DNA from: Dehalococcoidia bacterium
GTDB lineage: Bacteria; Chloroflexota; Dehalococcoidia; Plut-88900
Direction of reading: 5' to 3'
Assembly (NCBI GenBank): GCA_965197585.1
Contig: OZ240215.1
Coordinates: forward strand, 544,001 to 608,000
Length of the DNA stretch: 64,000 bases
Under the pieces are notes generated by a model. That model was not told where the DNA came from and searched no databases. It saw only the letters and a program-made list of their open reading frames with translations. Within the stretch, counting starts at the first letter, position 1. Every line of letters begins with the position of its first letter. The position numbers were made by a program, and so were the translations under genes. Shown piece after piece: positions 9,494 through 49,920 of the stretch.

Positions 9494-11746
9494 CTACCGT
9501 CTCCGGTCCCGGTTCCCCGAAAATCTGCTCTGCGGCCTGTCGCCACGTGGCGGACGCCGGTCTTGGGGTCCCCTGTCCCGGTTACCTGACCTGTAGCCCC
9601 CGCCCGACCCAGAATTGCGGTCTCCCGAATTAGATCGACCGCCTTCTGGTCCCAGTCCCGATCCGCCTTCCAGCACGGCTCTGCGGGACAGATTTATCCG
9701 CCCCATCGAGTCTATCTCAGTTACCAGCACCGCGACCTCATCCCCCACTTTAACCTCGTCCTCCACCGACTCTACCCGGTAGTCAGCCAGTTCGCTGATA
9801 TGCACCAGCCCGTCCTTGCCCGGCAGAATCTCCACGAACGCCCCGAAGTTCATAATCCGCACAACTTTGCCAGTGTACTGCTCTCCTACCTCAACCTCTT
9901 TGGTCAAACCTCTTATCATATCCGCAGCCTGTTTGGCAGCTTCGGCGTTGGACGATCCGATTATCACGGTGCCGTCGTCCTCAACGTCTATGGTCGCCCC
10001 AGTAGTCTCGACGATCGACCTTATGGTCTTGCCACCTGGCCCGATCACCAGTCCTATCTTCTCTTTGTCTATGGTTACCTTCGTCATACGCGGGGCGTAC
10101 TCGCTGAGATCCGGACGGGCCTGCTGAATAGTCTTATTCATCAGGTCCAGGACGTGCATCCGGCCTGCAACGGCCTGTTTGAGGGCTTTCTCCATTATTT
10201 CGAAGCTGAGCCCTTTGATCTTCAGGTCCATCTGCCAGCCCGTCATCCCCTTGGAGGTGCCGGCAACCTTGAAGTCCATGTCTCCCATGAAGTCCTCGAT
10301 GCCCGCTATGTCCGTCAGCACCGAGTATCGGCCGTTCTCATCGGTGATCAGGCCCATGGCCACACCAGCCACCGGACGGGATATCGGCACGCCTGCGTCC
10401 ATGAGTGCCAGACTGCTGCCACAAACGCTGGCCATCGAAGTGCTGCCGTTCGAGCTGAGGGCTTCCGAGACCAGTCTTATGGCGTAAGGGAAGTCCTCTT
10501 CACTGGGTATCACGGGAATGAGCGACTTCTCGGCCAAGGCCCCGTGGCCTATCTCCCTTCGCCCCGGCGAACCTATCCTTCCCGTCTCCCCCACACTGTA
10601 GGGCGGGAAGTTGTAGTGGTGCATGAACCGCTTTCTGGTGTGCTGGCTGATATTGTCAATCTTCTGGGCATCGCCGGCGGACGAAAGGGTCGTCACCGAT
10701 AGCACTTGGGTCTGGCCCCGGGTGAATAGCCCGCTGCCGTGAGTCCTTGGAAGTAACCCCACCTCGCATTCGATATGACGAAACTCTTCCAGATCTCGGC
10801 CATCCGGCCTTGTACCCGTGTCCAGGATGTTCGTTCGGACTATCTTCTTCACCTGCGCCCGCACCACATCCCCCACTGCCTCACCGGGGAACTTATCCGC
10901 CAGTATGGAGGCAGCTTCCTTCTCCAAGTCCTCTATCGCCGACTCCCGCTCCTCACGCCTAACCACCTTGCTGGTCGACCTCAGCCGTTCGCCGACCAGG
11001 TCCAGCACCGCCTTTTCAAGTGTGGGGTTAGTAGCCGCTGTCGCGGACAACTTCATCTTGGTCTTACCGCAGGCCGAGACCATCTCTTCCTGCAGATCGA
11101 TGACTATTAGATTGGCTTCCTGCCCGAACTTCACGGCTTCTAGGACCAGGTCATCGGGCAACTCGTTGACGCCTGCCTCCACCATCACTACCGCATCCTT
11201 ATTCCCGACGACCACCAAGTCTAGATCGCTCTTAAGAAGTTGAGTATAGGTGGGGTTCAGCACGAATTCCCCGTCGATGTAACCCACCCGGGACCCGCCG
11301 ATCGGCCCGTCGAACGGTATCTCCGATATGGAAAGCGCAGCGGACGCCCCGATTGTCGCCGGTATCGAGGGCTCGTGTTCCCGGTCTGTCGAAAGCACGG
11401 TGGCGATTATCTGGACGTCGTTGCGTAATCCCTTGGGGAAAAGTGGCCTAAGCGGCCGGTCGATCATTCGCCCGGTGAGTATGGCATCGACCCCCGGTCT
11501 CCCTTCTCTTTTGAAGAAGCTGCCGGGAATCTTGCCGGCCGCGTAGTGTCGTTCTTCCAAGTCGATGGTCAGAGGGAGGAAGTCGATGCCGGGTCGGGGT
11601 TGCGCCGATACGCAGGCAGTTACCAGGACTACGGTGTCGCCATATACGACAGTGACCGAGCCGTGGGCCTGATTTGCGAGCTTCCCTGTGCCTAGATAAA
11701 GGGGTAGGCCGCCCAAGTCTCGTTGAAAGGTTTTAGCTGATGTCAA
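9494..11746 (-). CDS. pnp: Polyribonucleotide nucleotidyltransferase
   Basis: RREIGHG, SNGSTSMAS, GDMDFKVAG, KH and S1 domains; follows rpsO; TTG start. Confidence 0.98.
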   Translation of the reverse strand: MTSAKTFQRDLGGLPLYLGTGKLANQAHGSVTVVYGDTVVLVTACVSAQPRPGIDFLPLTIDLEERHYAAGKIPGSFFKREGRPGVDAILTGRMIDRPLRPLFPKGLRNDVQIIATVLSTDREHEPSIPATIGASAALSISEIPFDGPIGGSRVGYIDGEFVLNPTYTQLLKSDLDLVVVGNKDAVVMVEAGVNELPDDLVLEAVKFGQEANLIVIDLQEEMVSACGKTKMKLSATAATNPTLEKAVLDLVGERLRSTSKVVRREERESAIEDLEKEAASILADKFPGEAVGDVVRAQVKKIVRTNILDTGTRPDGRDLEEFRHIECEVGLLPRTHGSGLFTRGQTQVLSVTTLSSAGDAQKIDNISQHTRKRFMHHYNFPPYSVGETGRIGSPGRREIGHGALAEKSLIPVIPSEEDFPYAIRLVSEALSSNGSTSMASVCGSSLALMDAGVPISRPVAGVAMGLITDENGRYSVLTDIAGIEDFMGDMDFKVAGTSKGMTGWQMDLKIKGLSFEIMEKALKQAVAGRMHVLDLMNKTIQQARPDLSEYAPRMTKVTIDKEKIGLVIGPGGKTIRSIVETTGATIDVEDDGTVIIGSSNAEAAKQAADMIRGLTKEVEVGEQYTGKVVRIMNFGAFVEILPGKDGLVHISELADYRVESVEDEVKVGDEVAVLVTEIDSMGRINLSRRAVLEGGSGLGPEGGRSNSGDRNSGSGGGYRSGNRDRGPQDRRPPRGDRPQSRFSGNRDRRR

Positions 11747-11775
11747 GTATGGTCCGTATCAGGCCGTCCACAGAT

Positions 11776-12039
11776 CTATCTTCTCAGTCCCAACCTGGAG
11801 ATCATGGAGCGGTAGCGCGCCACATCCTCACGGTTCAGGTACTCGAGAAGCCGCCTGCGCTGGCCAACAAGTTTAAGCAGACCCCGCTGGCTGTGATAAT
11901 CGTGCTTGTGAATTCTCAGATGCCCGGTGATAGACCCTATCCTGTTTGTCAGTAGGGCTATCTGCACTTCTGCCGACCCTGAGTCGCTTTCGTGAAGCTG
12001 GTACGAACCGATTATTTCTTGCTTTAGCTGTGGGTCCAA
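11776..12039 (-). CDS. rpsO: 30S ribosomal protein S15
   Basis: [35 protein letters not shown]; TTG start with AGGAG SD. Confidence 0.98.
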
Positions 12040-12351
12040 AAAATCTAAATCTCCTAGTTTTCGGGGCGCAGTATAACACAGCCCCTATACCCGCGCAAAA
12101 CCTCCTTGTCCTCAACCTCTGACCATTCTTCATATCGCTGACGATGTGTCAAAATATGTACTGGTTGCTTGACTCTTCCAATAATTGCCTGGGGACATCC
12201 ACTTCTTTTCGGACGTGAAAAACACACTGCGTTTGTCCATTTCCACATTAACCTCTCTGGGAATGGGCAGAGGAACATCCTTATCCCCTTGCATTCCGAA
12301 TCATAAACCCCATACAATGCCTTATCCTCATTGCGGTAACGTTGCCTTACC

Positions 12352-12380
12352 TTTACACCCCACCAAGCGTTAAATATAAT
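12352..12380 (+). promoter_or_regulatory. Sigma-70 promoter of rpsA
   Basis: TTTACA-17 nt-TATAAT ending 13 nt before the ATG. Confidence 0.65.
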
Positions 12381-12393
12381 TGAATACAAGCTT

Positions 12394-13593
12394 ATGAATG
12401 ATTCCGAAGGACAAGAGACCGAACCCCAGGACAGTTCCTCCTACGGAATGCAGCAACTGCTGGACGAGGCCGAAAACGTCGCCACCATTAGACGCGGCGA
12501 CATAGTCAAGGGCGTCATCGTTCAGAAAGACCGCGAGGGCCTCCTGGTCGATATCGGCGCAAAGACCGAAGGCATGGTCCCCGTCCGTGAGATGCGCACC
12601 TTCTCCGCCGAGGAGATCGAGGCCCTTAGCCTCGGTGACGACGTCCTAGTATACGTAGTCCAGTCCGACGAGAGCGAAGGCCAGATATACCTCTCCGTGG
12701 ACCGCGCCCAAGGCGAGAAGGGCTGGCACGTCCTCCAGGAGAACTTCGATAACGGAGACGTCATAGAGGGCGAGGCCGTTGACTTCAACAAAGGGGGCCT
12801 CCTGGTCAACGTAGAGGGCGTGCGGGGCTTCGTCCCCATGTCGCAGCTGTCCAGACCCATCGTCTTCGATCCCTCTGCCGACCCAAACCGCAATCCGCTA
12901 TCCGACCTCGTAGGCAATAAGCTAAAGCTAAGAGTCATCGAAATCAACCGGCGTCGCAACCGCCTCATCCTTTCCGAAAAGCAGGTAATGCGGCAGCAGA
13001 GGGAAGAGCAACGGCAAGCTCTCTTCGCTGAATTGGAGACCGGCCAGGTCCGCAAAGGGCGAGTTACTGGCATTCGGGAATTCGGCGCATTCGTCGACAT
13101 CGGCGGGGTCGATGGCCTAGTTCACCTCTCTGAGTTCTCTTGGGGCCAGGTAGAGCCTCCCGAAAAATCCCTCGCCATCGGCGACGAGGTGGACGTTTTT
13201 GTCCTTAGAGTAGACCGAGAGTCCATGAAAGTCGCCCTGAGCTTCCGGCGCCTCCATCCCGAGCCTTGGGAGTCAATCCACGAAAAATATCACGTTGGTC
13301 AGACCGTCACCGCCACTGTCACCAAGGTCACCACTTTTGGAGCCTTTGCACGGCTAGACCCCGCGATAGAAGGGCTAGTCCATATTTCAGAGCTAAGTGA
13401 CGGCCCTGTGCGTCACCCCTCCGACATCGTCTCCGAGGGCCAGGAGTTGACCCTTAAAATCTTGAGAATAGAGCCCGAAAGAAGACGCCTCGCCCTCAGC
13501 CTTAAGCAGGTCGGATCATACGGTTTCGCTGAGCGCTACCGGGATGAGTTCTACGGCTCGTCCGACATGGGGGACGGAGATTACGACGACTAG
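12394..13593 (+). CDS. rpsA: 30S ribosomal protein S1 (four S1 domains)
   Basis: Repeated S1 motifs (GLLVDIG, GGLLVNVEGVRGFVP, FGAFVDIGGVDGLVHLSE, FGAFARL...GLVHISE). Confidence 0.93.
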   Translation: MNDSEGQETEPQDSSSYGMQQLLDEAENVATIRRGDIVKGVIVQKDREGLLVDIGAKTEGMVPVREMRTFSAEEIEALSLGDDVLVYVVQSDESEGQIYLSVDRAQGEKGWHVLQENFDNGDVIEGEAVDFNKGGLLVNVEGVRGFVPMSQLSRPIVFDPSADPNRNPLSDLVGNKLKLRVIEINRRRNRLILSEKQVMRQQREEQRQALFAELETGQVRKGRVTGIREFGAFVDIGGVDGLVHLSEFSWGQVEPPEKSLAIGDEVDVFVLRVDRESMKVALSFRRLHPEPWESIHEKYHVGQTVTATVTKVTTFGAFARLDPAIEGLVHISELSDGPVRHPSDIVSEGQELTLKILRIEPERRRLALSLKQVGSYGFAERYRDEFYGSSDMGDGDYDD

Positions 13594-13649
13594 TACGGCA
13601 ATAACCCACTTATTGGACGTAGTAACCTTCGTCCAGTTGGGAGCGTCAC

Positions 13650-16106
13650 ATGGCCAGTAGATTTGAGAAGTTTTCCGAAAGCGCCCGAAAAGTCCTTTCC
13701 CTGGCGCAAGAGGAAGCCCAACAGTTTAACCACAACTATATAGGCACCGAGCATATTCTCCTGGGTTTGGTTAGGGAACAAGAGTGTGTCGCTGCCAAAG
13801 TATTGGTTAATCTCGGCGTACAGCTCAACAAGGTCAGGTCTGCCGTCGAGTTCATCATCGGTCGTGGGGAGAGAGCTGCCAGCGGCGAGATCGGTCTCAC
13901 TCCCCGGGCCAAAAAGGTCATTGAGCTCTCCGTAGACGAAGCCCGACGCCTCAACCATCAGTACATTGGCACCGAGCATCTCCTCATCGGACTCCTCCGG
14001 GAGGGTGATGGAGTAGCAGCCGGTGTCCTTGAAAGCCTAGGCGTCAATCTCGAAAAAGCCCGCGCCGAGACCACCCGGCTCCTCAGCCAGTCTCAGTCCC
14101 AGGCACAATCCTCTCGTGGCGCCGCCCGGACCCCGACCCTTGACCAGCTGGGCGTCGACTTAACACAGAAGGCCAGGAACGGGGTTTTGGATCCCGTTAT
14201 CGGACGCAGTAAAGAAATCGAAAGGGTCATACAGATCCTCAGTCGGCGAACCAAGAACAACCCTGTTCTCATAGGCGAGCCGGGTGTGGGCAAGAGCTCC
14301 ATTGTCGAGGCCCTTGCCCAGCAAATTGCGTCATCTGATGTCCCAGATACCCTACAGGGGAAACGCTTGGTCACCCTTGACGTCGGCGCCCTGGTAGCTG
14401 GAACCAAGTACCGCGGTGAGTTCGAAGAGCGCCTTCGCAAGGTGATCGATGAGATAAAGAGCTCCGGCAACTGTGTCCTATTTATTGATGAAATGCACAC
14501 CATCGTTGGCGCAGGTGCCGCCGAAGGCGCAGTAGACGCCGCCAACATGCTCAAGCCCGCCCTTGCCCGCGGCGAACTCCAGTGTATCGGTGCTACTACC
14601 CTGGACGACTACCGTAAGCAGGTGGAAAGGGACCCTGCCCTGGAACGCCGTTTCCAGCCCATCAGGGTAGAGGAACCCTCAGTTGAGGAGACCGTAGAAA
14701 TCCTCCGAGGCCTGAAGACCCGCTATGAGGACCACCACGACCTGAATATCACCGACGAAGCGATCCAGGAGGCTGCTAACCTCGCCTCCCGATATATCAC
14801 TGACCGCTTCCTTCCGGACAAGGGCATAGACGTTATAGACGAAGCTTCCTCCCGAGTTCGTATCCGCAACTCGACCATGCCCGTCTACCTCAAAGATGCC
14901 ATGATTGCTCTTGAATCGGTCAAGAAGGACAAGGAGACTGCCATCCAGTCTCAGAAGTACGAGGCTGCTGCCCAACTACGGGAGCAGGAGTTGTCCCTCG
15001 CCGATGAGTTGGAAGGCATGGAGACCGAGTGGAAGTCCGAGCGGACCCAGGACAGGCCTAATGTCACCGCCGACGATGTTGCCGAGGTCGTCAGCATGTG
15101 GACGGGCATTCCCGTCACCCGGCTCGCCACCGAGGAAATCGAGCGCCTCCTCAAAATGGAAGAGGCCCTTCACGAAAAGATCATCGGCCAGGACGAGGCT
15201 ATCAATGTCGTTGCAAAGGCCGTACGCAGGGCGCGGGCCGGTCTCAAGGACCGCCGCCGGCCCATAGGAAACTTCATCTTCCTCGGCCCCACCGGTGTTG
15301 GCAAGACCTATCTGGTCCGTGCCCTCGCCGAGTTCATGTTCGGATCCGAGGAGTCCCTCATCAGGATCGACATGTCCGAGTTCATGGAGCGCCACGCCGT
15401 CGCTCGATTGGTCGGCGCTCCTCCCGGATACATCGGCTATGAGGAGGGTGGTCAGCTCACCGAGGCAGTCCGCCGACGCTCTTACTCGGCCATCCTTCTG
15501 GACGAAATCGAGAAGGCTCACCCGGACGTCTTCAACTTGCTCCTCCAGATATTCGATGATGGCCATTTGACCGATGCCAAAGGCCGCAAAGTCGACTTCC
15601 GGAACAGCATTGTCGTCATGACAAGCAACATCGGCGCCGAGCTTATTAAGCGCGATAACTCCCTCGGCTTCTCGATCACAATGGATGAAAATGAGGCCTC
15701 CCGCGAGTCATACGAGCGGATGAAGGACAAGGTCCTTACCGAGGTCAAGCGCTTCTTCCGACCTGAGTTCCTTAACCGTATCGATGGCATAGTGGTATTC
15801 CACGCCCTCACCAGGGATCACATTCTGCAGATCGTGGACCTCCTCCTTGATGAGGTACGGGCCAATCTGACCGAAAAGGGCGTCAGTCTGGAGATTTCCG
15901 ATGGCGCGAAGGAGCTCCTCGCAGTCCGGGGCTACGATCCCACCTTCGGTGCCAGACCTCTGAAACGCGTCATTCAGGATGTCGTCGAAGACCCCCTATC
16001 CGAGCAACTGCTGCAGGGTCGTTTTGGCCCCGGAGACACTGTCTTCATTGATGTCGATGGCGGGGAGATCACCGTCGGCCCCGTCGCCGAGCTGGCTAAA
16101 ACCTAA
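13650..16106 (+). CDS. clpC: ATP-dependent Clp protease ATPase subunit ClpC
   Basis: Two Clp-N repeats, GEPGVGKS and GPTGVGKT Walker A motifs, UVR middle domain, GFS loop. Confidence 0.96.
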   Translation: MASRFEKFSESARKVLSLAQEEAQQFNHNYIGTEHILLGLVREQECVAAKVLVNLGVQLNKVRSAVEFIIGRGERAASGEIGLTPRAKKVIELSVDEARRLNHQYIGTEHLLIGLLREGDGVAAGVLESLGVNLEKARAETTRLLSQSQSQAQSSRGAARTPTLDQLGVDLTQKARNGVLDPVIGRSKEIERVIQILSRRTKNNPVLIGEPGVGKSSIVEALAQQIASSDVPDTLQGKRLVTLDVGALVAGTKYRGEFEERLRKVIDEIKSSGNCVLFIDEMHTIVGAGAAEGAVDAANMLKPALARGELQCIGATTLDDYRKQVERDPALERRFQPIRVEEPSVEETVEILRGLKTRYEDHHDLNITDEAIQEAANLASRYITDRFLPDKGIDVIDEASSRVRIRNSTMPVYLKDAMIALESVKKDKETAIQSQKYEAAAQLREQELSLADELEGMETEWKSERTQDRPNVTADDVAEVVSMWTGIPVTRLATEEIERLLKMEEALHEKIIGQDEAINVVAKAVRRARAGLKDRRRPIGNFIFLGPTGVGKTYLVRALAEFMFGSEESLIRIDMSEFMERHAVARLVGAPPGYIGYEEGGQLTEAVRRRSYSAILLDEIEKAHPDVFNLLLQIFDDGHLTDAKGRKVDFRNSIVVMTSNIGAELIKRDNSLGFSITMDENEASRESYERMKDKVLTEVKRFFRPEFLNRIDGIVVFHALTRDHILQIVDLLLDEVRANLTEKGVSLEISDGAKELLAVRGYDPTFGARPLKRVIQDVVEDPLSEQLLQGRFGPGDTVFIDVDGGEITVGPVAELAKT

Positions 16107-20997: not shown

Positions 20998-21073
20998 GCC
21001 CGAGTGGCGCAATGGCAGCGCAGCCGATTTGTAATCGGCAGGTTGGCGGGTTCGATTCCCCTCTCGGGCTCCA
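20998..21073 (+). tRNA. tRNA-Thr(UGU)
   Basis: Acceptor GCCCGAG/CTCGGGC, anticodon arm GCCGA-TTTGTAA-TCGGC, TTCGATT, encoded CCA. Confidence 0.93.
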
Positions 21074-21138
21074 ACCCGCGTCAAAAAACCTCCAACAAAC
21101 AAATCCATCAGGTGCCATAAACAGGAGCACGTCATTGC

Positions 21139-21224
21139 GGAGGGGTGGGTGAGCGGTTAAAACCGGCGGTCTGTAAAATCGCTGCCGAAAGGCTACGCAG
21201 GTTCGAATCCTGCCCCCTCCACCA
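21139..21224 (+). tRNA. tRNA-Tyr(GUA)
   Basis: GGAGGGG/CCCCTCC acceptor, CTGTAAA loop, long variable arm, GTTCGAATC, CCA. Confidence 0.95.
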
Positions 21225-21265
21225 TCAAAAGAATCTATAATAGTGTGAAAAGGAGCATTCAGTAG

Positions 21266-21340
21266 GCCCACATAGCTCAGTGGTAGAGCACGTTCTTGGT
21301 AAGAACGGGGTCACCGGTTCAAATCCGGTTGTGGGCTCCA
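21266..21340 (+). tRNA. tRNA-Thr(GGU)
   Basis: GCCCACA/TGTGGGC acceptor, CGTTC-TTGGTAA-GAACG, GTTCAAATC, CCA. Confidence 0.95.
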
Positions 21341-43976: not shown

Positions 43977-45149
43977 CTAGCCTGCCACCATAGGAGTCGG
44001 CTTGGACTCTTTCCTGAACTGCGGCATCACCTTAGTCCCGAACATCTCCAGGGAGCGCATCACCTTGTGGTGGGGTATGCCGCCGCCACCGGGGAAGTTG
44101 GTCAGAAGGTGCTTCACGCCGCACACTTCCTGTAGCTCGTGGATCTTCTCGGCTACGTGATCGGGAGGGCCGGCGAGGAACTGGCGCTCATTCAAAAAGT
44201 CCCAGTCGAGCTTCATGTCGGGTGTAGGCTTCTCCCCCGGATTCATGTAGAACCGCAGGGACTGGGTAACGTCGGTGTGGAAGCTGCTCACGAACCCGTG
44301 GGCTGCGAGGAACGCCTCTTCTGCGTCGTTCTTAGCCTCCTCCATGGAATCCGCCACGTATGTGTTCCTTTGCACCGCCCACCCCTCCCCCAACCCAAAT
44401 TCCCGACCCTCCCTCTCCGACCGGATGGACGCATAGATCTCGCACCATTCCCGTATCTGCAGGACCGAGGGCCTCCAGGTAACCGCGTTAAAGCCCAGCT
44501 CCGCAGTCTGTTTTAAGGAGTTGGGCGATGATACCGTACCCCACAACTGAGGATGAGGCTTCTGGTACGGCTTCGGGAAAATGGCGAGTTTCGTGATTAT
44601 CCCGTCCTTGGTCGCCCGGGGGTCAGGCGGAGCGTAGGGCGTGTTCCACGGTATCCCCGGCGGGGGCAGCGTCCAGTTCTCGCCCTGGTGGGAGAAGACA
44701 TCCTCCGTCCAGGCCTTGACCAGAATCTCGATGTTCTCCCGCATAAGCTGCCGAGACTTGGCTTCGTCCCTGGGGTCGGCGTTGGCGTGGAAGGGCACAG
44801 TGTCCCGAGGCCAGGGCCCTCGGCCAAACCCGATCTCTATCCGGCCTTCCGTGAGATGGTCCAGTGTGGCCACGTCCTCGGCCAGTCTCAGGGGATGCCA
44901 AAGGCTCGGGACCAGGCAGGCAAACCCGATACGGAGGTTCTTGGTGCGGCTCGCCATGTCGGCGGCGACCATAAGCGGGTTGGGGGAGTTGCCGAACCCC
45001 TCCAGACCCAGGTGGTGCTCCCCGAGCCAGAGGTAGTCGAAACCCAACTCCTCCATCATCAGCACATACTCCCTCATCTCCCTAACGAGTTGGTCGTATG
45101 GAGTGGATAGGCCAGGGTCCCTGAACATGAAGACGCTGCCGAACAGCAT
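43977..45149 (-). CDS. LLM-class luciferase-like monooxygenase
   Basis: WLGEHH, HPLRLAEDVATLDHL, GRIEIGFGRG, PKPYQKPHP. Confidence 0.9.
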   Translation of the reverse strand: MLFGSVFMFRDPGLSTPYDQLVREMREYVLMMEELGFDYLWLGEHHLGLEGFGNSPNPLMVAADMASRTKNLRIGFACLVPSLWHPLRLAEDVATLDHLTEGRIEIGFGRGPWPRDTVPFHANADPRDEAKSRQLMRENIEILVKAWTEDVFSHQGENWTLPPPGIPWNTPYAPPDPRATKDGIITKLAIFPKPYQKPHPQLWGTVSSPNSLKQTAELGFNAVTWRPSVLQIREWCEIYASIRSEREGREFGLGEGWAVQRNTYVADSMEEAKNDAEEAFLAAHGFVSSFHTDVTQSLRFYMNPGEKPTPDMKLDWDFLNERQFLAGPPDHVAEKIHELQEVCGVKHLLTNFPGGGGIPHHKVMRSLEMFGTKVMPQFRKESKPTPMVAG

Positions 45150-45254
45150 CTGCTCTACCTCACTTATATCTACGTGTTTAGCTCAAGGTGTTTGGGGTCG
45201 GGGGGGATTATATGTGAATCCACCACTCAATTGAACCGAGTCCCCGAAACCGCT

Positions 45255-45593
45255 CTAATCGTGCCCGTGCCTCGATTCCTCTTCCAGCCACATCATCCGC
45301 CCGTTCATGCTCTCCTCCGTCACGAGACCCTTCTCCAAGGCAACCTTTTCCAGCGCCGAGAGCCATTGCTGGTAGTAGGAACGCCCATCCTTGTCCTTCT
45401 CCGACTCCTTGATCGCCGTGACCAGGGCTTCCCTGAACTCCGGCCACTCCACTACACCTGCATCGCTCAGACTGACGGCCAACCCGAAGGCACGGCTTTC
45501 CCACGGCATCTCGAATACCAATTCGCCGTTCTTCCGCGGCAAAGCCACCTCCCCACCCATCCCCGAGATTTGACTGTCTGTTAATTTCTCCAT
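45255..45593 (-). CDS. Nitrile hydratase accessory/activator protein (P14K-like)
   Basis: FEMPWESRAFGLAV, WPEFREAL, YYQQWLSALEK, His-containing tail; ATG 45593. Confidence 0.88.
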   Translation of the reverse strand: MEKLTDSQISGMGGEVALPRKNGELVFEMPWESRAFGLAVSLSDAGVVEWPEFREALVTAIKESEKDKDGRSYYQQWLSALEKVALEKGLVTEESMNGRMMWLEEESRHGHD

Positions 45594-45594
45594 T

Positions 45595-46053
45595 TTATAG
45601 TTGCGCAATCTCGCTAGGTGAGACTGTTACAGATCCCGTTGCGCCGTTGTACTCCATAGTCAACATGCCAAGGAAATCCCTGCCTAGCAAGGCAAAAAAG
45701 GGTGTTCCACTGGAACGCAATGGAATACCTGCAAACAGCCCGTCAAATGTGACTCCCAGGCTTGGTATATGAAGCTGAGCTTGATGTGATTCAGTAAGTT
45801 GAGGGCCGTGTATCCCGACTATCGCCCTACTGTCCACAATCGGCAACTCTAATGCTCTCGCTAGTGTGGCATCAACACAGCTCTCGGTAGCTCCTGTATC
45901 TATAAGAGCCAGGTATTGGCGTTCAGAGAAGCCTGACAGCACGTCTTCTTCGGGGGTGTAGTTTGGATCAAATCCAACCTGCACCCAGACGCATGGGCCT
46001 TCGTAAGCTAAACGGTCGGGCTCATTGGGGAACCCGCATTCTATAGATGGCAT
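45595..46053 (-). CDS. Retropepsin-like (clan AA) aspartyl protease
   Basis: ALIDTGATESCVD catalytic motif, LARALEL helix, ALLGRDFL; ATG overlaps the upstream TGA (TGATG). Confidence 0.85.
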   Translation of the reverse strand: MPSIECGFPNEPDRLAYEGPCVWVQVGFDPNYTPEEDVLSGFSERQYLALIDTGATESCVDATLARALELPIVDSRAIVGIHGPQLTESHQAQLHIPSLGVTFDGLFAGIPLRSSGTPFFALLGRDFLGMLTMEYNGATGSVTVSPSEIAQL

Positions 46054-46289
46054 CACCGGATCCCGTACATGATGCGTGATGAGAGGCGCAAAGGCCCTTC
46101 GCCTATTCTCTTTAACAGGTACGGGCCTCGGCCAAACCGCTTCCTCGCCACAGCTGCTGCCTTCTGAAAGGTCTCGTAGGTGCCAATCAACTTCTGGTCG
46201 TGGACCAATACCCATTCGCCCTTGTGATTCGCTTCCAGGTCGTCGCGCATCATTTCGTAGGCGATGATCTCTTTTTCTATGATAGCCAT
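46053..46289 (-). CDS. DUF5678-like small protein
   Basis: YEMMRDDLEANHKGEWVLVHDQKLIG pattern typical of the small partners of clan AA proteases. Confidence 0.7.
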   Translation of the reverse strand: MAIIEKEIIAYEMMRDDLEANHKGEWVLVHDQKLIGTYETFQKAAAVARKRFGRGPYLLKRIGEGPLRLSSRIMYGIR

Positions 46290-46371
46290 GGTAATTACCC
46301 CTGTCGGTCGATCATGTTAGCAAAATTCTCTGGCTGCCCCTACTCCGTTGTTTGCTACTGGCGCCGACTTG

Positions 46372-47004
46372 CTAACCCCTCCCCACCGCCTCCGGCATCC
46401 GCGCCTTGGCCACCCCGACCATGGAGTCCCTGGTCACCAGCTCGGCCAATTCGTCTTCGCCCATCCCTTCCGTCCCGGATGGCCGCTCGGGCAGAACCAT
46501 GTATCTGATCTCTGCGTTGCTGTCCCAGACCCGCAAATCGATCGACTCCTCTACATCCAACCCGAATTCTTTCAGCACTTCTCGCGGCTCGATGACCATA
46601 CGAGACCGGTACGAGAAGGACTTGTACCACGTCGGCGGGAGGCCGAGCACCGGCCACGGGTAGCATGAGCACAACGTGCAAACAACGGCGTTGTGGACAT
46701 TCGCCGTGTTCTCCAAAACCACTATCTCCGAACCTTCTGCTCCCTGAAACCCCAGTTCTGCGATGGCCTTGGTACCGTCCTCTAGCAAACGCGCTTTGTA
46801 TTCCGCGTCGACCCACGCCCGGGCCACGACCCTGGCTCCGTTCATGGGCCCTATGTCCTCTTCGTAGGTCTTCACCAGCGCGTCGATTGCGTCCGTGGTG
46901 ACGTAACCCTTCTCCACAAGCAGGGATTCCAGGGCCTTGGTCCGCAGGGAGGCATAGGACTCCGCCTCGTGCTCGTGGTCATGATCGTCGTGGTGTTCGC
47001 TCAT
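46372..47004 (-). CDS. nthA: Cobalt-type nitrile hydratase alpha subunit
   Basis: [12 protein letters not shown] (Thr/Tyr signature of Co type), GARVVARAW, His-rich N-terminus. Confidence 0.96.
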
Positions 47005-47007
47005 TGC

Positions 47008-47688
47008 CTAGTCCTCTGAGTCCAGATAGCTGTCCCACATGTCGATATAAACCGATTCCGTCTCCGATGCCTCCTCGCCCCACAGCTCCCGCGCCTCGAA
47101 CCTGACGTTATAGATGTGCTGAGGCTGGGGGCCGAGCCCCTGCGCCTTGGTGTCGTCGAAGCTGTGTACTCCGTGCAGCCGGGTCACGACACCTGATCTT
47201 CCCCGTATATATCTCGGCAGCCGCGTGTGGCCCTGCGGGTTGATGGTGCGTGCCCGCACCCGGTCCCCGACCTTGAATCTTGGCTCCGCCTCGGTCTCCC
47301 GCTGCGGAGATCTGTGCCTGTAAATGGCCGCCGCCATAGTGGAAGCCTGCTCGGGGTCTTCATGGCGCTCGGGTGCGGACTTCGGGTCACTTGCGAAATG
47401 CGCAGTACGGCGGTCAATCTCCTCCCTGGTGGTAACGCCCTTGCTGACAAGGGCGTCTTCCAGCGCACCCATCCACCTTTCGTAGTAGCTTGACCTCAGA
47501 TAACGCGCCGGCTCCAGTTCTTCGATGAACGGCCTCAGTCCGCCGGGGGCCATGAGCCGTTTCTGCCCCGCAGCGATGGCCATCGCGTATACCCGACCCT
47601 CCCAAGGCTCGTGGAAGACGGGCTCATCCGTCTCGATGGGCACGGGCCCAAACCCGTGCATGCCACCCATGTCGTGGATTCCGTTCAT
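47008..47688 (-). CDS. nthB: Nitrile hydratase beta subunit
   Basis: MNGIHDMGGMHGFG, FHEPWEGR, SYYERW, GHTRLPRYIRG, ELWG. Confidence 0.96.
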   Translation of the reverse strand: MNGIHDMGGMHGFGPVPIETDEPVFHEPWEGRVYAMAIAAGQKRLMAPGGLRPFIEELEPARYLRSSYYERWMGALEDALVSKGVTTREEIDRRTAHFASDPKSAPERHEDPEQASTMAAAIYRHRSPQRETEAEPRFKVGDRVRARTINPQGHTRLPRYIRGRSGVVTRLHGVHSFDDTKAQGLGPQPQHIYNVRFEARELWGEEASETESVYIDMWDSYLDSED

Positions 47689-47718
47689 ATCAAGTCTTGC
47701 CTTGCTGCTGATGCCGTA

Positions 47719-48708
47719 CTAAGCACCCGTGAGCTCGCTGGTTTTGGTAGCGTTTCTCAAAGACTCCAAATTCACATACGTGTACTTCTGTGTAAACGCA
47801 GTTCCCTTGCCGCTTTTGCTCTTCTTATCGTTCTTGACGGGGCCTACAAGTTTAAATGTCTCTTCGTCATCAAAACCGCTCAGAAATATCCACTGATGAG
47901 CTCGACTAAAGTGGATTTGAAAGAAATCTCGCATTTCTTGCGTTACACTATTCTTCTTCATTTCAAATTCGGCTTTAAGTTGCTCTGCAAAAGCCCTTTG
48001 CTCTCCGTCAAGTGATTCGATTTCGCCTGGCTTGTCAAGGGTTAGGGGTTTGATCACGGATTTTATCTTGGCGACTCTCGGTTTGATCTCGTTGTCCTTA
48101 GAAAAGGCAATATACCCAGAGGGTCGAAATGACCAACTGCCGGGACACATGTATACGCTGAACTCCTTGTAAGCTGGCCACGCCGCCTTTGCGGCCAGCA
48201 CCAACACCCTAGACTCGTAAGAGCCTACTAATCCATCCTGCTTTAGCATACGAACAAGTTCTCTGAGCAAAAACGCCTCCTTTTCGGAAGCGGGCTCGTC
48301 CTCATCACCAAGTATCCCTTGCACACTTGTGATTAATCTCTGGAAGTTTGACCAGTGCACCCCTTCATCCAAAAGTGGTGGCCGATTCTCGTCTGGTGTG
48401 AGCAGCAGCAACTTCTCACGACCAGTTAGGCTTTGCAAGTGATTCTTAATCTGTACGTGGTTCACACTGTTATGCCACGTTTTAGTCTCTATCCAGACAG
48501 CGGGACTAGTCCGAATTTTGGCATCGGGCCTTGATGATTTGCCTTTCGGTTGGTTTTCAAACGAGATCAAACTAAAAGTCTTCTCATTGAGCAACCCTTG
48601 AAGGATGCGGTCCATATTGGGCAAACTCAACCTCTCAAGGACAGCCAAAAAAGTGGCCGTGACTCGATTTTCCCCCTGCTTATAGACGGAAAAAAGCGAA
48701 GTAGTCAT
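47719..48708 (-). CDS. Putative PD-(D/E)XK nuclease superfamily protein
   Basis: ENRVTATFL...RPDAKI...VWIETK...QIKNH motif order; visibly AT-richer than the flanks. Confidence 0.6.
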   Translation of the reverse strand: MTTSLFSVYKQGENRVTATFLAVLERLSLPNMDRILQGLLNEKTFSLISFENQPKGKSSRPDAKIRTSPAVWIETKTWHNSVNHVQIKNHLQSLTGREKLLLLTPDENRPPLLDEGVHWSNFQRLITSVQGILGDEDEPASEKEAFLLRELVRMLKQDGLVGSYESRVLVLAAKAAWPAYKEFSVYMCPGSWSFRPSGYIAFSKDNEIKPRVAKIKSVIKPLTLDKPGEIESLDGEQRAFAEQLKAEFEMKKNSVTQEMRDFFQIHFSRAHQWIFLSGFDDEETFKLVGPVKNDKKSKSGKGTAFTQKYTYVNLESLRNATKTSELTGA

Positions 48709-48711
48709 TCA

Positions 48712-49920
48712 CTAGGCCGCCAGCTCGAACAGTGCTGCCACCCCCTGGCCACCGCCCACGCACATCGTCTCCAACCCGAGCTTCGAGCCCCGGCGCTTCA
48801 TCTCATACAACATCGTTGCCAGGATCCGGGCCCCGGTGGCCGCTATGGGGTGACCGAGGGATATCCCCGACCCATTAACGTTCAGAATCTCGTGGATGTC
48901 GTCCCTGGGGGCCTGCCATTGATGCACGACGGAGAGTACCTGGGAAGCGAAGGCCTCGTTCAACTCGATCAAGTCGATGTCTCTCCACCCGTATCCGGTC
49001 TTGGCAAATAGCTTGTTGACTGCCGGCACAGGCCCGACCCCCATGTAGGCCGGATGCACCCCCGCCGACGCCCAACCCCTCAGGTAAGCCATCGGCTCCA
49101 GCCCTAGCTCGTCCAGCTTGTCCACTGCAACTACAAGACATACCGACGCAGCGTCGTTCTGTGAGCTGGAGTTGCCCGCCGTGACCGAGCCATCCTTCAT
49201 CAATGCCCTCAGCTTGCCCAGCGATTCCATAGAGGTGTCCTTGCGGGGCCCTTCGTCCGCTTCGAACATCACGGGTGGGCCTCGACGCTGGGGTACGGGA
49301 ACCGGAACTATCTCATCCTTGAACTTGCCCGCCTCTACTGCGGCCACAGCGCGCTGATGGCTGCGCAAGGAATACTCGTCCTGCTCTTCCCTGGAAATCT
49401 CATAATGATCGGCAACGTTCTGCGCCGTCCCGATCATCCCGGCAATGTAGCCGAACCTCTCCTCCGGAGAGGAAGCTTCCCTGCTCCTTACCAGCCGGTC
49501 GTGGAGAGTCATGGACCCCATCCGGCCTCCCCACCGAGCCTTGGTGGTGTAGTATTCGACCCCGCTCATGCTCTCCGCTCCGCCCGCGATCACCACGTCG
49601 GCGTTATCGGTTTGGACAAGCATTGCAGCATTCAGTATGGCCTGAAGCCCCGACGAGCACCTCCGGTCCAACTGGTAGCCTGTTACCTGTAGCGGTAGGT
49701 CGGCCTTCATGGCGCACAACCTACCAATGGCCGGGTTCTCCCCGCTGGAATACCCGTGTCCCAACACAACCTCGTCAATTCTCTCCGGGTCCACCCCGGA
49801 CCTCGACACCGCCTCCCGGATAATCAAGGCCCCCAAGTCCTCTGCAGGTATGTCTTTGAGGGTTCCCCCGAACCTCCCGACGGGCGTGCGAACAGGGCTG
49901 ACAATGGCTACTTCTCTCAT
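48712..49920 (-). CDS. Acetyl-CoA C-acyltransferase (thiolase)
   Basis: [26 protein letters not shown]. Confidence 0.95.

Follow-up and report, generated by a model that had tools for sequence, protein, structure and literature searches.

A DUF5678-like protein and a retropepsin-fold protease encoded between the alpha-subunit and activator genes of a Dehalococcoidia nitrile hydratase operon

Within a 64,000-nucleotide (nt) stretch of contig OZ240215.1 from a Dehalococcoidia bacterium (assembly GCA_965197585.1, positions 544,001 to 608,000; hereafter the window), an operon for a nitrile hydratase (NHase) carries two additional genes between nthA, which encodes the alpha subunit, and the accessory gene, which encodes the activator. 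The first specifies a small DUF5678-like protein of 78 amino acids (aa) and the second a 152-aa aspartic protease of the retropepsin fold. On present evidence, this pair has the look of a hitchhiking module complete in itself rather than of an established NHase helper: its alleles turn over independently of the surrounding NHase genes, copies stand alone in other phyla, and the small protein is predicted to insert its tail into the protease active site. The pair may be an autonomous binder-plus-protease cassette of toxin–antitoxin (TA)-like logic, long resident in the NHase operon and translationally coupled to the activator gene—a reading in which our confidence is evenly balanced.

Organisation of the operon

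The genes and the spacer concerned are given below in the direction of transcription.

47008 to 47688, minus strand: nthB, NHase beta subunit, 226 aa (TIGR03888; Pfam NHase_beta_N and NHase_beta_C)
46372 to 47004, minus strand: nthA, NHase alpha subunit, 210 aa (TIGR01323)
46290 to 46371, minus strand: spacer of 82 nt between nthA and the small gene, left edge of the exchanged cassette
46053 to 46289, minus strand: small partner gene, 78 aa, DUF5678-like (Pfam DUF5678)
45595 to 46053, minus strand: retropepsin-fold aspartic protease gene, 152 aa (D52-T-G-A and L122-G-R-D motifs; fold)
45255 to 45593, minus strand: NHase accessory (activator) gene, 112 aa (TIGR03889)

All five open reading frames (ORFs) are read from the minus strand, and both the gene order and the two tight junctions described in the original prediction are borne out. 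The small gene and the protease gene overlap by a single base within TGATG (46055 to 46051), the small-gene TGA occupying 46055 to 46053 and the protease ATG 46053 to 46051; the protease TAA (45597 to 45595) is followed by the single base 45594 and then by the accessory ATG (45593 to 45591). Longer forms of two of these genes can be drawn, as the protease ORF spans 45595 to 46215 if its first ATG is used and the accessory ORF spans 45255 to 45608 from a TTG. The 152-aa protease beginning at the ATG at 46053 is backed by homologues in two related loci (L001 and L002, introduced below), in which no start codon precedes the overlapping GTG/ATG in the protease frame, and the 112-aa accessory protein beginning at the ATG at 45593 is backed by homologues of 111 to 112 aa each. 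The spacer before the small-gene ATG carries a conserved GGGG/GGAG Shine–Dalgarno-like run, and no slippery heptamer was seen by eye in the sequence before the small–protease overlap. The G+C content of the pair is 0.515 to 0.545, compared with about 0.59 to 0.64 in the flanks.

Most cobalt-type NHases have the order beta–alpha–activator, and the six NHase gene orders listed by the same source include none with intervening genes (PMC7193024). Adjacency of the alpha and activator genes has been argued to help complex formation of the two proteins (PMC3511329). The same three families, in the same beta–alpha–activator order, make up the canonical cobalt-type operon (L-NHase of Rhodococcus rhodochrous J1; the activator P14K of Pseudomonas putida and Bordetella petrii); the window differs from it by two extra genes (46053 to 46289 and 45595 to 46053), which split alpha from activator and break the contiguity of that order.

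Identity and fold of the protease

The 152-aa protein lies below the Pfam cut-offs for gag-asp_proteas (24.1 versus 28.2) and Asp_protease_2 (22.7 versus 24.3), and the Pfam and NCBIfam scans list, besides these two families, only RVP and a sub-threshold TIGR03698; its relatives in loci L006 and L008 exceed the Pfam cut-off, at 32.2 and 31.3. All 26 aligned sequences keep residues D52, T53, G54, and A55. The AlphaFold2 (AF2) model has a predicted local distance difference test (pLDDT) value of 88.9 and a predicted template modelling score (pTM) of 0.82, and a Foldseek search with it returns 61 Protein Data Bank (PDB) matches at E≤1e-3, headed by the proteases of XMRV (7.6e-6) and HIV-1, Ddi1, and APRc (5c9f). 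The family profile likewise matches HIV protease (2.3e-5) and Ddi1. Because of the invariant DTGA, the AF2 model, the fold matches, and the profile match to HIV protease, the protein is a clan AA retropepsin-fold aspartic protease despite its sub-threshold Pfam scores. The DTGA and LLGRD motifs, described at the outset as intact, are kept in all alleles.

The fold, the DTGA motif, and the profile match (HIV protease, Ddi1) are common to the window protease and the retropepsins of retroviruses, Ddi1, and APRc of Rickettsia. The window protease differs in being a stand-alone bacterial protein of 152 aa, extended at its N terminus by about 45 residues, with a separate small partner, and in having no polyprotein (the P0269 fusion described below aside) and no membrane anchor.

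The small partner and its predicted complex with the protease

As had been proposed, the small protein is DUF5678-like: it scores 25.5 bits against a Pfam gathering cut-off of 23.2, over residues 20 to 56 of 78 only. A DUF5678 cluster is among its Atlas look-alikes (score 0.93; 15% of the members carry the family), and the small-protein relatives of other phyla, in loci L006 to L008, have no Pfam match at E≤0.001. The protein is divided into a conserved core, residues 1 to 63, and a hypervariable C-terminal tail, residues 64 to 78, of which there are several classes; the 22 invariant columns in an alignment of 23 sequences all lie in the core, with none past residue 63. Its AF2 model has a pLDDT of 76 and no PDB fold match at E≤0.001 (Foldseek), and its profile yields a single match among PDB sequences, at E 0.57.

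The family is large, with 1334 representatives (clusters at 50% identity) at E≤1e-3 and 316 at E≤1e-10. Twenty-four of the longer representatives were scanned for fusions. Two of these join the small protein to a protease, one cleanly (P0269) and one in a form that looks frameshifted (P0277), and the clean fusion supports a functional link between the two proteins as read from sequence. The small domain is also C-terminal on orotidine 5'-monophosphate (OMP) decarboxylase (PyrF) in three of the 24 and follows a 3'-phosphoadenosine 5'-phosphosulfate (PAPS)-reductase-like region in one, all within the group P0244, P0266, P0279, and P0271. Other copies of the pair proteins were sought within the 64-kb window, and none was found at E<1.

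The complex was modelled from two protease chains and one small protein, with its own alignments and three controls. The model scores 0.78, against 0.44 for the best control, so that the multimer prediction originally suggested as a check on the protease and its small partner was passed; the score mark is attained by 116 of 157 solved complexes and by 2 of 215 mismatched pairs, counts that are rough for a job with its own alignments and 2+1 chains. The runs share at least 62% of contacts, and the partner pLDDT is at least 80. Confidence is highest for the contacts between residues 54 to 60 of the small protein (within RFGRGPYL) and residues 71 to 74 of the protease (LPIVD), and the motifs RFGRGPYL and LPxVD are nearly invariant in their respective families. 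In the model, tail residues 64 to 78 reach the catalytic centres of the two protease copies, where they contact residues 52 and 54 to 57 of each, and D52 of each copy faces the partner tail. The model thus supports binding of the small protein to the protease, and it is from this geometry that we infer a role for the tail as protease inhibitor or pseudo-substrate.

Allele turnover and cassette borders

Related loci were collected by a scan of genome contigs seeded with the small-protein homologue alignment, which gave eight loci in species-representative genomes (L001 to L008). This seed biases the sample, in that operons lacking the pair could not appear. Five of the eight (L001 to L005) are Dehalococcoidia loci, from metagenome-assembled genomes of other species. 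Their NHases and that of the window fall into two groups, one comprising the window, L001, L002, and L004 and the other L003 and L005, with beta subunits 75% to 77% identical between groups; the DNA of the window is about 90% to 93% identical to that of L001, L002, and L004, which marks it as coming from the same group as these genomes. Protein identities are as follows, the NHase proteins being the products of nthB, nthA, and the accessory gene.

Window versus L001 and L002: NHase proteins 90% to 97%, small protein 100%, protease 98% to 100%
Window versus L004: NHase proteins 90% to 97%, small protein 71%, protease 41%
L003 versus L005: NHase proteins 89% to 95%, small protein 79%, protease 40%
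Window group versus L003 and L005: beta subunit 75% to 77%, small protein 71% to 79%, protease 39% to 67%

Proteases of different Dehalococcoidia operons are about as distant from one another as those of other phyla (36% to 47%). The borders of this divergence are sharp. Between the window and L004, nucleotide identity falls from about 93% to between 54% and 69% over precisely the interval from nthA stop to accessory start; mismatches per 50 nt rise from about 2 to 6 to between 10 and 37 just past the nthA stop and return to the lower level where the accessory gene begins. In the comparison with L001 and L002, the imbalance is reversed: third-codon mismatches number 12 of 232 in the pair and 91 of 551 in the NHase genes for L001 (Fisher p 8e-6), and 8 of 232 and 72 of 551 for L002 (Fisher p 1.5e-5), amounting to 3% to 5% divergence in the pair versus 13% to 17% in the flanks. 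Because the borders against L004 are sharp and third-codon divergence from L001 and L002 is low, the cassette moves as a unit: recombination in the flanking NHase genes carries alleles of the entire cassette from one lineage to another.

In L005, the single protease gene is preceded by two small genes in tandem (10001 to 10240 and 10327 to 10584), which belong to different clades and may be the trace of a cassette replacement. As a separate observation, P0174 and P0175 each hold two tandem small-protein domains in one protein of 168 to 172 aa, an arrangement that echoes the L005 genes.

The tree of small proteins unites in a single clade, with support of 100/99, every sequence except those of L006 to L008: 30 rows in all, from the Dehalococcoidia loci, the window, and metagenomes, the last without an assigned organism. 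The protease tree joins the same 30 rows weakly (61/89), with L004 and L005 on long branches. As far as trees can tell, the pattern is what a single old insertion would leave if the cassette then diverged and was exchanged rapidly.

Two further observations concern the operon around the pair. Between the window and L003 or L005, the NHase proteins are less alike (beta 76% to 77%, alpha 84% to 86%, accessory 73% to 74%) than the thiolase (92%) and luciferase-like monooxygenase (91% to 94%) encoded nearby, and the whole NHase segment may have been exchanged or be fast-evolving. At the thiolase–nthB junction, a 329-aa ORF (47719 to 48708, minus strand) of G+C content 0.465 to 0.505, versus about 0.6, has no match in Pfam, NCBIfam, PADLOC, PHROGs, or PDB sequences. 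It is missing from L001, L002, L003, and L005, in which the thiolase stop lies 3 nt from the nthB start, and L004 has a 54%-identical version at the same junction; this ORF is thus another variable cassette of the operon that sits where two genes meet.

Conserved position in Dehalococcoidia and stand-alone copies elsewhere

The protease gene directly follows the small gene in all eight loci, with junctions that range from a 29-nt overlap to a 1-nt gap. All five Dehalococcoidia loci have the order nthB–nthA–small–protease–accessory, and they share a syntenic neighbourhood of a PhyH-like gene, a thiolase gene, the NHase genes with the pair, a luciferase-like monooxygenase gene, an S15 peptidase gene, and a second luciferase-like monooxygenase gene. 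Close relatives with nthA directly beside the activator gene were named in the original prediction as the observation that would count against it; none is present among these loci, drawn as they are from the small-protein-seeded scan. The gap between the protease and accessory genes is 1 nt in the window, L001, and L002 and 15 nt in L003; the genes overlap by 1 nt in L004, as they also do in L005 if an ATG start is used. Protease stop and accessory start are thus 0 to 1 nt apart in five of six Dehalococcoidia genomes. In addition, seven 'longest contig' sizes (4987413, 3968, 10139, 16147, 16396, 31050, and 47296) recur in accessory-protein clusters of this clade and in pair proteins; the equal sizes suggest that seven further metagenome contigs encode a pair member together with such an accessory protein.

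In all three loci from other phyla (Binatia, Pseudomonadales, and Terriglobales), the pair is alone among unrelated genes. A search of 10 kb to each side, shortened to about 5 kb on the downstream side of L008 by the end of its contig, found no NHase match. Its neighbours there are UbiD and SIR2_2 genes in one case, genes for a Na/Ala symporter, an NYN protein, and hem functions in another, and cupin, rnpA, and yidC genes in the third. In the Binatia locus (L006), a 1273-aa SIR2_2-domain protein is encoded convergently at 10886 to 14707 on the minus strand, just downstream of the pair; SIR2_2 is a domain known from defence systems.

A putative protease-based conflict cassette

Taken together, these observations can be assembled into the following model. 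The 78-aa protein and the 152-aa protease would constitute a self-contained two-protein module in which the protease acts as a dimer of the clan AA retropepsin fold. The small protein would dock its conserved RFGRGPYL strand on the LPxVD strand of the protease, and its variable tail would then lie in the active-site cleft over both aspartates, as inhibitor or pseudo-substrate. The logic of the pair would be that of a type II TA system or of another conflict cassette, with a presumably toxic protease and a function presumably independent of NHase. The cassette, which would have entered the operon once, is a long-standing resident of the gap between nthA and the accessory gene in one Dehalococcoidia lineage, where divergent alleles replace it as a unit via recombination in the NHase flanks. 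The pair is probably co-transcribed with the operon and, because protease stop and accessory start lie so close together in five of six genomes, ribosomes that reach the end of the protease gene probably reinitiate at the accessory ATG.

In type II TA systems, antitoxin tails occupy toxin active sites. MazEF, Phd-Doc, and RelBE resemble the window pair in having a small upstream gene that overlaps a larger enzyme gene and in the partner tail, here predicted, within the enzyme active site; further points of likeness are the fast allele turnover, the extra partner gene in L005, and the stand-alone copies in other phyla. The window pair differs in that its enzyme is an aspartic protease, in that it has no recognisable DNA-binding domain, own promoter, or PADLOC match, and in that it lies within a metabolic operon to which it is coupled. 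Small retropepsin-domain proteins have been reported to adjoin archaeal type III CRISPR (clustered regularly interspaced short palindromic repeats) loci (PMC3973734).

Several observations weigh against this reading. Searches of Pfam, PDB folds, and PDB sequences reveal no recognisable DNA-binding family or solved relative for the small protein, and its fusions to OMP decarboxylase and to a PAPS-reductase-like region are unusual for an antitoxin. No own promoter of the pair is evident in a promoter scan of 44900 to 49000 or in the six-locus alignment. Neither protein has a match in plasmid and phage collections (tblastn) or to any family in PADLOC and PHROGs. The single clade formed by the Dehalococcoidia small proteins suggests an old association rather than repeated chance landing, and the occurrence of the pair at one junction in six of six Dehalococcoidia genomes, in two NHase types and with tight coupling to the accessory gene, could reflect an NHase-tied function. 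What survives of the earlier proposal that a selfish or TA-like module had landed here is accordingly its first part, for which the stand-alone copies, the independent exchange, and the predicted cleft plug speak; a recent landing does not agree with the same junction in all five relatives and in two NHase types.

The tail-in-cleft prediction, the turnover, and the stand-alone copies of a large uncharacterised family suggest an aspartic-protease version of TA logic. A full-text literature search, supplements aside, found no published account of the DUF5678-like/protease pair, whether beside nitrile hydratase, in Dehalococcoidia, or as an antitoxin system, and no published function for DUF5678. 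Whatever its role, the locus is a new NHase gene order, with two foreign-looking genes kept through speciation in the alpha–activator gap, and it implies either that strict alpha–activator adjacency is dispensable or that the inserted genes matter. The Dehalococcoidia operons are also a source of natural variants for heterologous NHase expression.

Alternative explanations

One alternative, the second option of the original prediction, is that the pair has been recruited into NHase biogenesis, either as a gated protease that trims or turns over the accessory protein or the alpha subunit, or as inserted genes that set the level of accessory protein relative to alpha and beta. The shared junction in six of six Dehalococcoidia genomes, across NHase types with only 75% to 77% beta identity, would follow from such a role, as would the 0- to 1-nt spacing between protease stop and accessory start in five of them; taken jointly, the pair and the NHase segment have diverged further than the thiolase (92%) and monooxygenase (91% to 94%), as if they were one travelling unit, and the seven metagenome contigs suggested to hold an accessory protein and a pair member point the same way. 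The P14K activator, moreover, is described as poorly expressed and unstable (PMC3680314), and there is a precedent for an operon-embedded retropepsin-like protease that acts on the product of its operon: RimB, a small cytoplasmic protease of the Pseudomonas RimABK operon, acts on polyglutamate tails (PMC11957791). Like the window protease, RimB is a small aspartic protease of the retropepsin-like kind whose gene shares an operon with those of an enzyme system; it differs in having no small tail-bearing partner, and neither the Pfam nor the NCBIfam scan listed a RimB-type family for the window protease. Against recruitment stands the lack of co-variation, as protease alleles are 39% to 41% identical where NHase proteins are 89% to 97% identical, and the pair occurs without NHase in three of three loci from other phyla; the uniform position is, furthermore, taken from a genome sample biased by the small-protein seed. 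The proposal of a protease recruited for NHase maturation consequently finds no direct support here, and we regard recruitment as rather improbable. A stricter form, in which the pair is integral to cobalt-NHase biogenesis and a tail-gated protease governs how much accessory protein or alpha subunit is present, or how long it lasts, while self-subunit swapping takes place, is judged unlikely; if true, it would add to metalloenzyme maturation a proteolytic layer not known to have been described for an NHase.

It is similarly doubtful that the protein is a regulated cytoplasmic protease of housekeeping proteolysis, with the small protein as a detachable, prodomain-like chaperone or adaptor, that its task concerns neither NHase nor conflict, and that it was placed here by historical accident. 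The size of the family (1334 representatives at E≤1e-3, 316 at E≤1e-10), the fusions that link the small domain with the protease or with other enzymes, and the absence of a defence-library match would all suit such a function. Protease identity of 40% between operons otherwise 93% identical, with sharp borders, is unlike that of usual housekeeping proteins, and the uneven synonymous divergence of pair and flanks and the second small gene of another clade in L005 also speak against it.

The least probable of the alternatives makes the small protein a precursor, with a leader-like domain and a variable core, and the protease a dedicated peptidase that frees a signal or bioactive peptide: the conserved residues 1 to 63 and the several classes of hypervariable tail (64 to 78) do recall the leader/core pattern of ribosomally synthesised and post-translationally modified peptides, the tail is modelled substrate-like in the cleft, and the tails have in common a hydrophobic-aromatic core (V/I/L-M/L-Y/F) such as retropepsins cleave, but no modifying or tailoring enzyme, exporter, or receptor gene is common to the eight loci, the tails lack the Cys/Ser/Thr pattern typical of modified peptides, and the supposed leader is, in the model, a folded domain that itself contacts the protease.

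Promoter, RNA, and insertion-site searches

The extended -10-like motif originally noted ahead of the pair, TGCTAACAT, is present at 46322 to 46314 on the minus strand, within the nthA–small spacer, and did not hold up as a promoter. The promoter scan of 44900 to 49000 gave one site, with 2.4 expected, and this site is not at TGCTAACAT; the motif is found in three of six aligned loci and is deleted in L003, L004, and L005. An insertion scar was also sought, and the sole direct repeat, a 10-nt pair at 45548 to 45557 and 46378 to 46387, was rejected, about one such repeat being expected by chance in 1.3 kb (a rough estimate). Between 45000 and 49000 there is no credible Rfam element, the one match, to a long non-coding RNA, reaching 12.3 bits where the gathering score is 70; in the whole window, Rfam finds only three consecutive tRNA genes at 20998 to 21337 on the plus strand.

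NHase genes and accessory protein

The three NHase genes belong to the families first assigned to them, each scoring above its NCBIfam cut-off: nthA has 302.4 bits for TIGR01323 (cut-off 249.85), nthB 256.4 bits for TIGR03888 (cut-off 152.2), and the accessory protein 73.8 bits for TIGR03889 (cut-off 46). The nthA translation carries the metal-site motif VCTLCSC, not VCSLCSC, which is the signature of cobalt-type NHases, and the assignment of the enzyme to that type rests on this motif. The nthA N terminus (gene 46372 to 47004) is rich in His, Asp, and Glu, and the accessory protein (gene 45255 to 45593) ends in EEESRHGHD; either could be a metal-binding tail. Finally, four accessory-protein clusters from metagenomes (P0067, P0076, P0081, and P0084) shift frame near the C terminus and end in ...GRGIEARARLE.FRGLGSIEW. 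The frame that they enter is that of an overlapping 98-aa ORF in the window (45208 to 45504, minus strand), and the switch is probably the product of assembly frameshifts.

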